Positions 3,085 to 64,000 of a stretch of DNA of 64,000 nucleotides are shown here, piece after piece (position 1 is the first letter of the stretch; each line of letters starts with the position of its first letter). The stretch covers positions 1,447 through 65,446 of the forward strand of contig JAZKYS010000019.1 in NCBI GenBank assembly GCA_045612285.1, given 5' to 3'. A program made the translations under genes and the position numbers. This DNA comes from Elusimicrobiaceae bacterium (GTDB lineage: Bacteria > Elusimicrobiota > Elusimicrobia > Elusimicrobiales > Elusimicrobiaceae). The notes beneath the pieces were generated by a model, which worked only from the letters and a program-made list of their open reading frames with translations, searched no databases and was not told the origin of the DNA.

Positions 3085-3093
3085 TGATATACT
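3085..3093 (+). promoter_or_regulatory. Extended -10 promoter element (TGaTATACT) driving leader RNA copy A
   Basis: The same TGnTATACT lies at the same distance from the conserved 5' hairpin in all three leader copies. It resembles the AAATTT(A/G)nTATAAT motif upstream of smc, the activase and clpC. Confidence 0.55.
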
Positions 3094-3098
3094 AAAAA

Positions 3099-3340
3099 TG
3101 TAAGTATTTTTTTACTTACATAAAAATTTAATCTGTTTTTGGATGCCGAAAGGCTGCTTTTACATAAGTAAAAGTGTATTCAAATCCCAAAACAGCTGTT
3201 ATAGGTGTATAACACAAAGTCTAATTAACTTTTGTGATATACGCTGAATGTTTGCATATGCAAACTACGGCTGTTATATTTAGGGCATTGAATACACTTA
3301 AATATAAAAGCCGTTTTTTATGCTCCGAAAACCTGTTTAA
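3099..3340 (+). ncRNA. Structured 5' leader RNA, copy A (candidate cis-regulatory RNA of pilin-like gene)
   Basis: 5' hairpin 3100-3106/3113-3119, then invariant TAAAAATTTAATCTGTTTTTGGA at 3121-3143. Hairpins at 3145-3154, 3157-3174, 3205-3242 and 3250-3265. Long-range pair 3174-3183/3288-3297, helix 3267-3281/3300-3314, closing pair 3133-3143/3324-3335. All helices covary with copies B and C. Confidence 0.7.
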
Positions 3341-3354
3341 AAGGAGTATAAAAA

Positions 3355-3873
3355 ATGAATATAGTTTCAAAAAAAACAAAAGGCTTTACCTTAATTGAAT
3401 TATTAGTTGTAGTTTTGATTATCGGTATTTTGGCGGCTATTGCCGTGCCGCAATATGAAAAAGCTGTTTTAAATAGCAGATTAACACAATATATTGTCTA
3501 TATGGATGCCTTAAGAAAAGGTGCTGACCTTTATTATTTAGCTAATGGTAAAATGACTAATGATGTCCGGGATCTTGATATAGATGTTGAACCCAATGCG
3601 ATAACATTTAAAACTTCAACTATATCCCCCCTCGCAACGGGTGTTTTTTTTAAAGATGGACTTGAGTGTATGGTCCACTTTCAAGACATAGCTTGCCTTG
3701 GAAAAGATTTCTATTTACTATCTAGTCATTCCTGGAGAAATACTCCTTTTCAAGGAATTATTTGTTTTGGAAAAAATAACAAAAAAGCAGAAGAAATTTG
3801 TAAATCAAAATCCAATGGGATATCTGTTTATTATCACGAAAATTTCCAATCAAATGGATATAGGCTACAATAA
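3355..3873 (+). CDS. Prepilin-type N-terminal cleavage/methylation domain protein (type IV pilin/pseudopilin-like)
   Basis: KG|[24 protein letters not shown] motif, SD AAGGAG at 3341-3346, and a divergent Cys-containing C-terminal domain. Confidence 0.85.
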   Translation: MNIVSKKTKGFTLIELLVVVLIIGILAAIAVPQYEKAVLNSRLTQYIVYMDALRKGADLYYLANGKMTNDVRDLDIDVEPNAITFKTSTISPLATGVFFKDGLECMVHFQDIACLGKDFYLLSSHSWRNTPFQGIICFGKNNKKAEEICKSKSNGISVYYHENFQSNGYRLQ

Positions 3874-13379: not shown

Positions 13380-13450
13380 CTCCGGGACTAGGACTCGAAC
13401 CTAGGCTAAACGCTCCAGAGGCGCTTGTGCTACCATTACACCATCCCGGA
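13380..13450 (-). tRNA. tRNA-Gln (anticodon CTG)
   Basis: Manual cloverleaf: acceptor TCCGGGA/TCCCGGA, D arm GTGT/GCAC, anticodon stem AGCGC/GCGTT with loop CTCTGGA, T arm CTAGG-TTCGAGT-CCTAG. CCA is not encoded. Confidence 0.85.
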
Positions 13451-13637
13451 ATATAAAAATATTCTCTAATCTTATTTTATCATTTTTGGCTTTTACTTGC
13501 TAGATTTTATTTCATCTCATCATCCTACAAAAATGTTATAGCTTTTACTTTGTAAAAGTAATTTATTTACTACTGTTTTTACAAATATCTTATTTTTTCA
13601 GTCGGTAATATTTTTATTTATCGTCGTAGAAATTGAC

Positions 13638-13663
13638 TTGATTTTCAAAAAAAAAAATAAAAT
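13638..13663 (+). promoter_or_regulatory. Candidate promoter with A11 tract in spacer (TTGATT-ttc-A11-TAAAAT)
   Basis: -35-like TTGATT at 13638-13643, A11 at 13647-13657, -10-like TAAAAT at 13658-13663. Near-identical block at 32121-32147 upstream of another pilin-like gene. Confidence 0.5.
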
Positions 13664-13683
13664 ATTGGTAGCTGAAGAAATAC

Positions 13684-13751: not shown

Positions 13752-14243
13752 ATGAAAACAAATAAAGGGTTTACTTTAATTGAATTATTAGTAGTAGTCT
13801 TAATTATAGGTATTTTAGCAGCTATTGCCCTACCGAAATATCAAGTAGCTGTAGTTAAAAGCCGTTATTCCACAATGAAAGAATTAGCTAATTCTATTAA
13901 AGAAGCACAAGAAGTATATTATTTAGCCCACGGAGAATATGCCGCAACTTTGCCAGAATTAGATATTACACTTGGCGATAGCACAACTGATAAACAAGAA
14001 TACCCTTGGGGTTATTGTGCCATTGAAAAAAACAATGCTCTTGTTTATTGTGCAAACACTCAAATAGGTATGGAATATCAAATAATTTTTAATAATCACC
14101 CAGCTACTTCAATAGCAGGGAAGCGCCAATGCGTAGCTTACGGCAATGATTTATCTGCCCCTAATCATAGTATTTGTAAACAAGAAACAGGCTTAGTTAA
14201 TCCAACAAGTCCAGGTCAAAAACACAGCATTTATAATTACTAA
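13752..14243 (+). CDS. Prepilin-type N-terminal cleavage/methylation domain protein (pilin-like)
   Basis: Start moved to ATG 13752 (MKTNKG|[24 protein letters not shown]) behind SD AAGGAAAAGGAG. The TTG 13638 extension in the ORF track covers the promoter region. Confidence 0.85.
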
Positions 14244-32058: not shown

Positions 32059-32120
32059 GCGCCCTGCTAAGACGAAGAAAAAAGCAAAAAAAGAAGAAAT
32101 ATCGTCGTAAAACAAAAAAC

Positions 32121-32147
32121 TTGATTTTCAAAAAAAAAAAAATAAAA
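32121..32147 (+). promoter_or_regulatory. Candidate promoter with A12 tract in spacer (TTGATT-ttc-A12-TAAAAT)
   Basis: TTGATT at 32121-32126, A12 at 32130-32141, TAAAAT at 32142-32147. The upstream ATCGTCGTA block is shared with 13621-13663. Confidence 0.5.
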
Positions 32148-32190
32148 TTTAATTTGTTAAGTCAATAAAACAATAGGAGAAAAAACATTT

Positions 32191-42555: not shown

Positions 42556-42631
42556 TGGTGGACCTGAACGGGATCGAACCGATGACCTCCTGCATGCCAT
42601 GCAGGCGCTCTCCCAGCTGAGCTACAGGCCC
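42556..42631 (-). tRNA. tRNA-Ala (anticodon GGC), CCA encoded
   Basis: Manual cloverleaf: GGGCCTG acceptor with G3:U70 Ala identity pair, anticodon stem CCTGC/GCAGG with loop ATGGCAT, T loop TTCGATC, and 3' ACCA. Confidence 0.9.
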
Positions 42632-42695: not shown

Positions 42696-42704
42696 TGATA
42701 TACT
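42696..42704 (+). promoter_or_regulatory. Extended -10 promoter element (TGaTATACT) driving leader RNA copy B
   Basis: Same motif and spacing to the 5' hairpin as copies A and C. Confidence 0.55.
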
Positions 42705-42709
42705 AAAAT

Positions 42710-42975
42710 TGTAAGTAGTTTTTACTTACATAAAAATTTAATCTGTTTTTGGAACCTTGTAAAAACAAGGATAGCTTTTGAGAAATCAAAAGCCATAGCG
42801 AAGTCCAAGAACAGCTCGTTATTAGGCACAGGACAAACGGCTTAATTACCCGCTTGTTTTGTGCCGAGTGTTTGCCGTTCTTTTAGAACGGCAAACTACG
42901 GCTGTTATATTTTTTGGTCACTTCGCTAGGCTAAAATATAGCAGCCGTCTTTCATAAGTTCCAAAAACAGTAAGA
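42710..42975 (+). ncRNA. Structured 5' leader RNA, copy B (candidate cis-regulatory RNA of pilin-like gene)
   Basis: 5' hairpin 42711-42729, invariant 23-mer 42731-42753. Hairpins 42755-42770, 42774-42793, 42825-42865 and 42870-42896. Long-range pair 42793-42804/42920-42930, helix 42898-42913/42933-42948, and 12/12 closing helix 42743-42754/42959-42970. Confidence 0.75.
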
Positions 42976-42984
42976 GAGGAATTT

Positions 42985-43518
42985 ATGAAAAACAAAAAAG
43001 GCTTTACTCTTATTGAAATACTTGTTGTTGTTTTAATTATCGGTATTTTAGCAGCGATAGCTGTGCCGCAATATCAAAAATCAGTATGGAAAAGTAGGGC
43101 TACAGGTATGCTCTTTAATTTAAAATCACTACATGAAGCAGTTAAAGTTTATCAATTAGCAAATAGCGCAAATCCATCAAATATAAATAAATTAGATATT
43201 TCCCTTAATAATTATAAACAAGCTTGTGTAAACACAGGACCGAGTTTTACCGAATCATCTTGTAAGGCAGATAAATATTCAAATTTATTTCTAAACATAA
43301 ATACAAACACTGGAAAAGGAACCGGAGAAGTTTTTTCACAATTTAATATAGGTCCTTATAAAAGTGGCGGTTTTTCAATAGCAGGTAATACTGTTATATG
43401 TTGGGAATACCCCTCATATATTAGTTTGAAAGGAGATTTTTGTAAAAAAATAATGGGTTGCCAACCAAGATCAGGCATAACAACTGAAGGCAGGCAATTC
43501 CTCTGTCCAAATTTATAA
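42985..43518 (+). CDS. Prepilin-type N-terminal cleavage/methylation domain protein (pilin-like)
   Basis: MKNKKG|[24 protein letters not shown] with SD AGAGAGGA. Confidence 0.85.
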   Translation: MKNKKGFTLIEILVVVLIIGILAAIAVPQYQKSVWKSRATGMLFNLKSLHEAVKVYQLANSANPSNINKLDISLNNYKQACVNTGPSFTESSCKADKYSNLFLNINTNTGKGTGEVFSQFNIGPYKSGGFSIAGNTVICWEYPSYISLKGDFCKKIMGCQPRSGITTEGRQFLCPNL

Positions 43519-63781: not shown

Positions 63782-63790
63782 TGTTATACT
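63782..63790 (+). promoter_or_regulatory. Extended -10 promoter element (TGtTATACT) driving leader RNA copy C
   Basis: Same motif and spacing as copies A and B. Begins 4 nt after the macro-domain stop codon. Confidence 0.5.
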
Positions 63791-63795
63791 ATAAG

Positions 63796-64000
63796 TGTAA
63801 GTAGCAATACTTACCTAAAAATTTAATCTGTTTTTGGAACCTTGTTTGTAGAACAAGGAGAACTTTTGAGAAATCAAAAGTGCTATGAGGTCCGAAAGCA
63901 GTCGTATTATAAATATACAGAAAAGTATATTTTATTCTGCCGTCTTTTTAGGCGGCAGATACGGCTGTTTATATTTGGGTTCCCTCATAGCACTCAAATA
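63796..64000 (+). ncRNA. Structured 5' leader RNA, copy C (3' end truncated by window)
   Basis: 5' hairpin 63797-63803/63808-63814 with GCAA loop, invariant 23-mer 63816-63838. Hairpins 63840-63858, 63862-63881, 63909-63935 and 63937-63958. Long-range pair 63880-63890/63983-63993. Confidence 0.7.

Follow-up and report, generated by a model that had tools for sequence, protein, structure and literature searches.

Leader RNAs that act through a terminator and an antiterminator, such as riboswitch platforms, T-box leaders and the PyrR and LicT/RAT systems, carry a terminator-like hairpin followed by a U-run, and an exclusive upstream pairing that sequesters the 5' arm of the terminator. Cyclic di-GMP (c-di-GMP) riboswitches occur upstream of type IV pilin genes, e.g. 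pilA1 of Clostridioides difficile. Here we analysed a 64,000-nucleotide (nt) stretch of DNA from an Elusimicrobiaceae bacterium (assembly GCA_045612285.1, contig JAZKYS010000019.1, positions 1,447 to 65,446 of the forward strand; "the window"), in which a first-pass annotation made from the sequence alone had proposed three copies (A, B and C) of a structured leader RNA. These leaders are a real, previously undescribed RNA family of ~230-260 nt that is located mainly before pilin-like genes of gut and rumen Elusimicrobia. On the evidence of sequence and covariation, we place them as a new family among the terminator/antiterminator leader RNAs. Like those, they have a terminator-like hairpin (T) and a U-run in the 5' leader, an exclusive upstream pairing to the terminator 5' arm, a conserved sensor part and a variable 3' platform, and in many members the Shine-Dalgarno sequence (SD) is masked as a second layer. 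Unlike those, they contain a chain of five mimic segments (S1, S1', T5', T3' and S1'') and a copy-specific 10-13-bp helix, Px, that joins the terminator loop to the 5' junction; they would regulate mainly pilin-like paralogues and have no obvious ligand pocket. The c-di-GMP riboswitches resemble the leader in being structured and placed with a terminator before a pilin gene, but the architecture and conserved bases of the leader differ from theirs.

To compare the leader with known RNA classes, Rfam 15 (4227 models) was run on the whole window at gathering thresholds, and only two tRNAs were returned. Permissive Rfam scans of copies A and B gave best E values of 0.19-1.3 at 18-25 bits, against gathering scores of 37-49 bits. 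The earlier statement that the leader matches no known class therefore held. The c-di-GMP-I and c-di-GMP-II models (GEMM-I, GEMM-II) did not match copies A and B at E values up to 10, and neither did the T-box model; no specifier loop or T-box sequence was seen. A T-box leader was rejected on the absence of a model match and on the downstream genes, which encode pilin-like, TPR and nuclease proteins rather than functions of aminoacyl-tRNA supply. No description of an Elusimicrobia pilin leader was found in Creative Commons-licensed PubMed Central papers or bioRxiv, although absence there is no proof.

All three copies were found in the window at the places given by the annotation, on the + strand. 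Each has TGnTATACT 6 nt upstream, opens with a GTAAGTA/TACTTAC hairpin (P0) and contains the 23-mer TAAAAATTTAATCTGTTTTTGGA, which has three exact matches in the window (3121, 42731 and 63816), all on the + strand, against a shuffle expectation of 0.01. Copy A spans 3100-3354 and copy B 42711-42984; copy C starts at 63797 and is cut off within its last hairpin, T, by the end of the window. The covariance-model alignments recovered the Pa, Pb and Pd hairpins listed by the annotation, all of which are present in the sequence; the closing helix S1:S1', the long Pc hairpin and the ~19-bp terminator-like T hairpin are additional to it. Predicted folding was much more stable than that of shuffled sequence (z = -8.1 for copy A and -10.9 for copy B), and the minimum free energy structure of copy A pairs UUUUUAUGCUCC with GGAGUAUAAAAA. 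The parts of copy A are as follows.

3085-3093, + strand: extended -10 promoter TGATATACT, read directly from the sequence
3100-3119, + strand: P0 hairpin GUAAGUA/UACUUAC at the predicted 5' end, from sequence and fold
3121-3132, + strand: conserved single-stranded 5' tag UAAAAAUUUAAU; tag plus S1 (3121-3143) is exact in all three window copies
3133-3142, + strand: S1, CUGUUUUUGG, inside the conserved 23-mer block
3145-3154, + strand: Pa hairpin GCC-GAAA-GGC, from the alignment to the 5'-domain model R1
3157-3174, + strand: Pb hairpin CUUUUAC-AUAA-GUAAAAG, from the covariance-model alignment
3174-3183, + strand: Px 5' strand (Px5') GUGUAUUCAA, single-stranded in the 5' three-way junction, from the duplex test and 5'-domain folds; its partner is 3288-3297
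3185-3195, + strand: S1', UCCCAAAACAG, partner of S1, from pairing counts
3204-3245, + strand: Pc long hairpin, apical loop CUAAUUA with palindrome UAAUUA at 3222-3227
3250-3265, + strand: Pd hairpin GUUUGC-AUAU-GCAAAC
3267-3314, + strand: T hairpin ACGGCUGUUAUAUUUAGGG...AAAUAUAAAAGCCGU, terminator-like; its loop, 3288-3297, is the Px 3' strand (Px3')
3315-3319, + strand: U-run directly after T
3322-3326, + strand: anti-SD GCUCC, part of the expression platform
3324-3332, + strand: S1'', UCCGAAAAC, complementary to S1, part of the expression platform
3343-3346, + strand: SD GGAG, with the AUG at 3355
3355-3873, + strand: downstream gene, a 172-aa prepilin-type protein (PF07963, E = 4.4e-9)

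The family is far larger than the three members first proposed, with more than 150 elements in at least 34 Elusimicrobiaceae genomes and in gut and rumen metagenomes. When one genome per species was searched for exact occurrences of the 19-mer AAATTTAATCTGTTTTTGG, taken from within the 23-mer, 99 loci were obtained. Approximately 87 of these, each with the exact 19-mer, proved to be genuine members; they come from 34 Elusimicrobiaceae or Elusimicrobiales genomes that originate from rumen, gut or faeces. Another 12 were chance matches in other phyla. One metagenome-assembled genome (MAG), RGIG5124, contributed 16 analysed copies. When all 72 5' domains were aligned with MAFFT and folded with RNAalifold, only S1:S1' was recovered, Pa and Pb being misaligned; a curated 18-sequence seed and covariance models of the 5' domain (R1) and the 3' domain (R2) overcame this. 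Strong matches in the genome-set loci numbered 103 for R1 and 99 for R2, including ~12 copies without the exact 19-mer; for the R2 alignment a stricter set was used, from which ~22 weak antisense matches were left out. An independent metagenome set was anchored on the 3' hairpin with the pattern ACGGCTGTT-N26-40-CAGCCGTTTTT. Approximately half of its matches were unrelated sequences; among the 100 loci scanned 48 elements passed R2, and 40 of those also had the R1 5' domain. The two models found no copies in the window beyond A, B and C.

Two observations on individual loci were made in this collection. Elements on contigs labelled Muribaculaceae (CAVKWQ01; loci L058 and L082) and Spirochaetes (UQJU01; L076 and L095) are near-identical to those of the Elusimicrobia MAGs DJFE01 and JBNMIY01, and these contigs are probably mis-binned or mislabelled. 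At L066 (6952-6970, - strand) lies a shortened variant in which the tag and S1 are followed after ~20 nt by AGCCGUUUUUG, Pa, Pb, Pc, Pd and most of T being apparently deleted.

Base pairing is maintained across the family through sequence change. Folded on its own, the 5' domain of essentially every member adopts one common three-way junction, in which S1:S1' closes Pa and Pb and ~10 unpaired bases correspond to Px5'. In the genome set, 97.8% of the 5'-domain cells were paired compared to 80.8% after shuffling, with 17 of 23 pairs changed on both sides; the 3' domain gave 94.9% compared to 74.8%, with 32 of 38 pairs changed on both sides. The metagenome set gave the same picture (5' domain, 98.7% against 80.2%, 16/23 pairs; 3' domain, 94.9% against 71.1%, 30/38 pairs). 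By helix, the genome-set pairs changed on both sides were 6/6 in Pa, 7/7 in Pb, 14/14 in Pc, 9/9 in Pd and 9/15 in T. For the whole-structure counts, none of 500 shuffles matched the observed paired fraction or covariation score, the score of the 3' domain being 0.613 against 0.232 shuffled. With one partner slid by 1-3 columns, 33-49% (5' domain) and 34-49% (3' domain) of cells remained paired. S1:S1' was paired in 99.3-99.7% of cells. S1 is rich in U and G, and most substitutions in this helix fall on the S1' strand as A-to-G or C-to-U, by which wobble pairs with S1 are retained; full compensatory changes were seen in divergent copies. G-U pairs are frequent throughout (e.g. GU:48 at one T pair and UG:24 at one Pc pair), and antisense matches scored at most 30 bits compared to 95-143 bits for most sense matches, which together assign the leader RNA to the + strand. 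The covariation, repeated in an independently anchored set, bears out the earlier proposal of selection on RNA structure, and with the added homologues each helix that it had named (Pa, Pb, Pd and Px) is supported.

Px was kept outside the covariance models and tested directly, by pairing the 14 nt before S1' with the T interior of the same copy or of other copies. Over 83 members the mean duplex energy was -15.4 kcal/mol for same-copy pairings and -5.2 kcal/mol (standard deviation 2.4) for cross-copy pairings, and 96% of the same-copy but only 4% of the cross-copy duplexes were below -10 kcal/mol. Px is thus copy-specific in sequence yet complementary within each copy, as the annotation had reported for its three copies. 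The Px3' strand takes up nearly all of the T loop (10 of its 11 bases pair in Px in L007), and the upper stem of T that flanks this loop itself covaries (3/3 pairs). Since an 11-13-nt stem-closed loop is ill-suited to a continuous external helix of 10-12 bp, Px and the fully formed T are probably alternatives; their coexistence is judged unlikely from RNA geometry. Both Px and the T upper stem covary and are sterically hard to combine, suggesting that there are two alternative states and that both are selected.

T has the appearance of an intrinsic terminator. It is a stable hairpin with a stem of ~19 bp located upstream of the start codon, with the U-run following immediately: in 77 of 83 copies, the 7 positions that follow AGCCGU include at least 5 Ts. 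S1' together with the bases that follow it (AACAGCUGU in copy A; AACAGCYGU in general) is complementary to the T 5' arm (ACGGCUGUU), giving an alternative pairing that would sequester one terminator arm, as in attenuators. The core of this putative antiterminator, AACAGCY:RGCUGUU, was paired in 97.7% of cells compared to 18-57% in slid controls, and 4 of its 7 pairs show compensatory change. Because S1' and T5' are both highly conserved, the case for the antiterminator is mainly one of complementarity. S1 (CUGUUUUUGG) and the T 5' arm (CUGUUauaUUUGG) are near-copies of each other, and S1', the T 3' arm and, in about half of the members, S1'' are mutually similar complements. Two divergent members changed these segments in parallel: L034 has CUA... 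in S1, ...UAG in S1' and GGCUA in T5', and L069 has ...UUAG in S1, CUAAA... in S1' and UUUUAG at the top of T5'. When Px was enforced, the folding model built a long helix of Px and S1':T5' enclosing Pc and Pd. The mean fold energy was -73.6 kcal/mol with Px enforced and -77.9 kcal/mol with T enforced, and the Px-enforced fold was the more stable in 14 of 83 copies, so the two folds are close in energy before downstream sequence is added.

About half of the members, including A and B, have S1'', a third S1-complementary segment, between T and the SD, where it shares sequence with the anti-SD arm of an SD- or AUG-masking hairpin. The duplex of S1 with the downstream region was below -10 kcal/mol in 54% of copies compared to 9% of shuffles, and in copy B the S1:S1'' match is an exact 13 bp. 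The SD- and AUG-masking hairpins vary along with the start region of their own gene (e.g. L028 and L084), which shows that the leader is coupled to the gene. Two other arrangements of the 3' region were seen. In class-2 copies (e.g. L017, L021, L022, L072 and L099), UUUUUAUUGGCUGA follows the U-run instead of the S1''/anti-SD platform, and its GGCUG can pair with CAGCC of the T 3' arm to form a small alternative hairpin across the U-run. In L062 (~+230 to +400 after the 19-mer), L069, L093, L018 and L044, a G+C-rich inverted-repeat insert, e.g. CGCCCCACACTTTTGCAAAGCAAAAGTGGGTGGG, lies between the U-run and the pilin start and shifts the gene to +400-490; this insert may be a small repeat element.

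Our preferred reading, to which we assign a probability of roughly 0.6, is that the element is a cis-acting leader that is transcribed from its own extended -10 promoter and decides expression of the downstream, usually pilin-like, gene by a two-state switch. This switch would act on both transcription (attenuation) and translation, in a direction proposed from the pairings. In the OFF state, S1:S1' and T5':T3' would form, transcription would terminate, and the SD would be masked in any read-through RNA. In the ON state, Px would form and nucleate the S1':T5' antiterminator enclosing Pc and Pd, leaving T3' unpaired, and the freed S1 would pair with S1'' and so open the ribosome-binding site. 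The 5' tag is strongly conserved and has no pairing partner in the RNA, which points to a trans-acting factor as the most likely agent of the flip; by binding the single-stranded tag and S1, such a factor would release S1' for the antiterminator.

Several points weigh against this reading. The transcript start, read-through and termination at T are all predictions, and the effector is a postulated one. The paired fraction of the antiterminator, 91.8%, hardly exceeds its column-shuffle control of 91.3%, and compensatory events in it are few. The pair counts come from alignments that were fitted to the model structure, and with many paralogues and closely related copies in the set they exceed the true number of independent events. 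A simple terminator scanner did not call T, whose loop is longer than the 8-nt limit of the scanner, and the tail of copy B, CUUUCAU, is weak. About half of the family lacks S1'' and has another 3' platform there (UUUUUAUUGGCUGA...). In principle, Px and T might also coexist as a strained pseudoknot.

A different account of the same layout is a riboswitch for a small molecule or an ion, with a pocket in the S1:S1'/Pa/Pb junction or the Pc/Pd junction and a ligand that would stabilise S1:S1' as a P1-like helix and thereby favour the terminator. The aptamer-then-platform order, a closing helix whose 3' strand is shared with the antiterminator, a 3' platform that varies between subfamilies and conserved junction bases (UUUAGG before Pc and GARU between Pc and Pd) would all fit. 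However, the downstream genes (pilin-like, TPR, nuclease, DUF805 and LicD) have no metabolic or transport theme, there are few conserved unpaired bases besides the 5' tag, the Pa and Pb loops vary, and a hypervariable Px5' as a junction strand is a poor basis for a pocket. Together with the lack of matches to known riboswitch models, including the c-di-GMP classes, this makes a small-molecule ligand improbable. It is also doubtful, if marginally less so, that the main product is a free terminated RNA of ~215-230 nt, homodimeric or of higher order, which acts, for example, as a scaffold, a sponge or a trans-regulator of paralogues, the gene being incidental or reached by read-through. T and the U-run are universal in the family and the 3' platform is not, the Pc palindromes described below suggest RNA-RNA assembly, the S1, S1' and S1'' sequences common to paralogues would permit cross-pairing of transcripts, and natural homodimeric and multimeric bacterial RNAs exist (PMC12990946). 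Against a free RNA, the element is nearly always directly upstream of a start codon, at a fixed distance and in the same orientation, the masking hairpins follow the gene start in L028 and L084, and the only orphan-like copy is the shortened one at L066.

A compact, pseudoknotted 5' untranslated region (UTR) that does not switch, and that constitutively sets mRNA stability or translation level, is still harder to accept. A hairpin with a U-run would be self-defeating there, and a static fold leaves the triple mimicry among S1, T5' and their partners, the parallel changes in L034 and L069 and the overlap of S1'' with the anti-SD unexplained. Such a UTR would nevertheless account for a P0 predicted exactly at the 5' end of the window copies, a 5'-terminal hairpin being a classical protection against 5'-end decay (e.g. 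the ompA leader), and all helices could in principle coexist if Px pseudoknots with a partly open T. Conservation at the DNA level, as an operator or promoter for a common factor or as the end of a mobile element with incidental inverted repeats, has a few observations in its favour: the tag contains a -10-like TAAAAT, a similar sequence, AAAATTTAATTTGTT, overlaps the promoter of another pilin gene at 32141-32158, and many copies occur per genome (16 in one MAG). The G-U wobble pairs, however, are abundant and strand-specific, which DNA symmetry does not explain, and six helices, as well as a pairing over a span of 100-130 nt, have been preserved through compensatory changes. Terminal repeats, transposase genes and target duplications are absent around the copies, whose flanking genes are ordinary chromosomal ones (in the window gatCA, a Nudix gene, a tRNA gene and a macro-domain gene). 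This explanation is largely refuted by the covariation, and we regard it as very improbable. A mobile element, an integron attC site, a retron, a CRISPR-associated RNA and a TnpB/IscB guide RNA were rejected for want of associated genes or terminal repeats, and leader-peptide attenuation for want of a conserved coding frame in the window copies.

The apical loop of Pc has a further property, self-complementarity. In the genome set this loop has a 6-nt palindrome in 58 of 83 copies, a 4-nt palindrome in 17 and none in 8; a palindrome is likewise present in 42 of the 47 metagenome-set copies. Among the unique apex-centred 13-mers of Pc, 29 of 48 contain a palindrome of at least 6 nt, compared to a mean of 7.1 and a maximum of 14 in 300 shuffles; apex palindromes in Pa (7/64), Pb (12/71) and Pd (10/73) are at or below shuffle values. 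Eight hexamer cores were found (UAAUUA, UUAUAA, UCAUGA, UCUAGA, UUGCAA, UUCGAA, GUCGAC and CUCGAG), together with the tetramer cores GAUC, AGCU, GGCC, UGCA and CGCG. Most hexamers are joined by symmetric double substitutions, such as UAAUUA to UCAUGA (positions 2 and 5) and UCAUGA to UCUAGA (positions 3 and 4). In every core the middle dinucleotide is self-complementary, although it is unable to pair inside one loop. Several palindrome classes coexist in one genome, each common to several paralogues, while the loop is plain in a small number of leaders, copy C among them. The number of independent events is approximately the number of classes (~20 loop classes, of which ~13 are palindromic) and not the number of copies. 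Because the self-complementary core is kept while its sequence changes, selection for loop-loop pairing between two RNAs is indicated. The loop thus has the hallmarks of a kissing loop, namely a self-complementary apical core, unpaired flanks and a palindrome kept through sequence change, and this suggests kissing-loop homodimerisation of the leader RNAs.

The loop of the human immunodeficiency virus type 1 (HIV-1) dimerisation initiation site is AA-GCGCGC-A. The typical Pc loop is 9 nt long and has the same geometry, a 6-nt self-complementary core preceded by 2 unpaired bases and followed by 1 (e.g. AC-UAAUUA-C, AA-UUGCAA-G and AC-UCUAGA-C). Pc differs from the viral site in that it is bacterial, lies in an mRNA leader, has mostly AU-rich cores and comprises at least 13 palindrome classes, and the dimer here is a predicted one only. 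Among bacteria, natural homodimeric or multimeric RNAs include adenosylcobalamin (AdoCbl) riboswitch dimers, HYER group IIC introns, ARRPOF, OLE, ROOL and GOLLD (PMC12990946). HYER ribozymes pair through palindromes in D3, members with palindromes dimerising and the others being monomeric, and in ARRPOF some helices alternate between intra- and intermolecular pairing (PMC12990946). The leaders are comparable to HYER in that most have a loop palindrome and a few, e.g. copy C, do not, and Px could alternate in the manner of the ARRPOF helices. No similarity in sequence or structure to AdoCbl dimers, HYER, ARRPOF, OLE, ROOL or GOLLD was detected, and Rfam gave no matches to them. The leader is much smaller than OLE, ROOL and GOLLD, is tied to a start codon and carries a terminator-like hairpin. 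The Pc palindromes may go further and constitute an RNA-RNA pairing code, in which leaders with the same palindrome, terminated or nascent, would dimerise, possibly with Px formed between molecules, and so flip the switch; we consider this extension speculative and rather unlikely.

At the 5' end, TGnTAtAMT occurs at the same distance in 36 of 85 family members, and its spacing places the probable transcript start of copy A at G3100. A simple promoter scanner did not call the extended -10 promoter, and the family statistics and direct reading were used instead. The P0 arms vary across the family and remain complementary (e.g. UAGGG/CCCUA and UAAGCC/GGCUUA). The annotation had called the 23-mer invariant. 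This is correct within the lineage of the window, where the 5' tag is exact, but in the metagenome sample anchored on the 3' hairpin the tag varies around (U)AMAAUUUnAWU and only CUGUUUUUGGA is near-constant. A locus complementary to the 5' tag was sought within the window and none was found, the sole extra CCAAAAACAG being S1'' of copy B itself.

In 24 of 85 members from other genomes, a good SD and an AUG 7-10 nt later precede P0, within the 50 nt upstream of the 19-mer, so that the predicted transcript would open with this SD. The AUG is followed at once by UAG or UAA, or by two codons before the stop, and the stop codon lies within the P0 5' arm; where AUG-UAG has become AUG-CAG-GGC-UAA, the in-frame stop is retained. 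The loci are L005, L016, L021-L024, L036, L037, L044, L047, L056, L057, L062, L063, L070, L072, L083, L085, L088, L089, L092, L094 and L099. This looks like a conserved start-stop mini-open reading frame; the window copies do not have its SD.

The genes downstream of the leader are prepilin-type in ~70% of cases across the family and non-pilin in ~30%, and the start codon lies at a near-constant distance of ~230-260 nt after the tag. Approximately 10 copies precede a TPR protein of ~150 aa; a staphylococcal-nuclease homologue, a DUF805 protein and a LicD protein are among those that have a single copy each before them. Two plain-loop leaders (L006 and L052; JAFQAA01, a goat-abomasum MAG) precede a small protein that begins MH(D/K)L..I(I/K)YT.AKY...Y.KW.IGLT, with no Pfam match. 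In the window, the genes directly 3' of copies A and B match Pfam N_methyl (PF07963), in agreement with their first assignment as prepilin-type; the gene after copy C lies beyond the window end. The parts of copies B and C are as follows.

42696-42984, + strand: copy B, promoter to start codon (R1 87.4 bits, R2 119.7 bits)
42696-42704, + strand: copy B promoter TGATATACT
42711-42729, + strand: copy B P0
42731-42753, + strand: copy B tag and S1
42755-42770, + strand: copy B Pa
42774-42793, + strand: copy B Pb
42793-42804, + strand: copy B Px5', paired with 42920-42930
42804-42814, + strand: copy B S1'
42825-42865, + strand: copy B Pc, loop palindrome UAAUUA at 42843-42848
42870-42896, + strand: copy B Pd
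42898-42948, + strand: copy B T, containing Px3' at 42920-42930
42958-42970, + strand: copy B S1'', GUUCCAAAAACAG, an exact CCAAAAACAG
42974-42979, + strand: copy B SD
42985-43518, + strand: gene downstream of copy B, a 177-aa prepilin-type protein (PF07963, E = 8.2e-10)
63782-64000, + strand: copy C (R1 77.8 bits; R2 33 bits, the match being ended by the window end)
63782-63790, + strand: copy C promoter TGTTATACT
63797-63814, + strand: copy C P0
63816-63838, + strand: copy C tag and S1
63840-63858, + strand: copy C Pa
63862-63881, + strand: copy C Pb
63880-63890, + strand: copy C Px5', paired with 63983-63993
63891-63901, + strand: copy C S1'
63907-63935, + strand: copy C Pc, plain loop without a palindrome
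63938-63958, + strand: copy C Pd
63961-63969, + strand: copy C T5'
63983-63993, + strand: copy C Px3'

The window (36% G+C) has six pilin-like genes, only two of which have the leader; the rest are served by a TTGATT-N17-TAAAAT promoter and have short UTRs. A promoter-like block made up of CTTGATTTTC, A10-13 and TAAAAT, at 13620-13665 and 32115-32160, is shared by two of these leaderless genes, which start near 13753 and 32192. At 32141-32176 lies a look-alike of the tag, scoring 20 bits with R1; it was rejected as a fourth copy, being promoter-proximal and without internal helices. Each of two - strand tRNA genes, at 13380-13450 and 42559-42631, lies upstream of a pilin-like gene and points away from it; ~65 nt separate the second from the copy B promoter.

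The leader is a new RNA family of seven helices with a long-range pairing and more than 150 members, in a phylum with almost no RNA biology on record. Its presence before a subset of many pilin-like paralogues suggests a link to the control of which of them are expressed. The proposed switch is of interest for its design, in which a mimic chain is combined with a copy-specific helix that reaches into the terminator loop, and even without dimerisation it would offer a clean, testable model for co-transcriptional strand-displacement switching. A self-complementary loop that is kept through sequence change is a signature of selected homodimerisation, of which bacterial mRNA leaders offer few documented cases. 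Were dimerisation to prove genuine and to be linked to the switch, it would be a new kind of regulatory input. Should the pairing code hold, groups of pilin-like genes would respond to the concentration of their own or their class-mates' transcripts, and the leader would be a riboregulator whose input is its own RNA, not a metabolite or protein.

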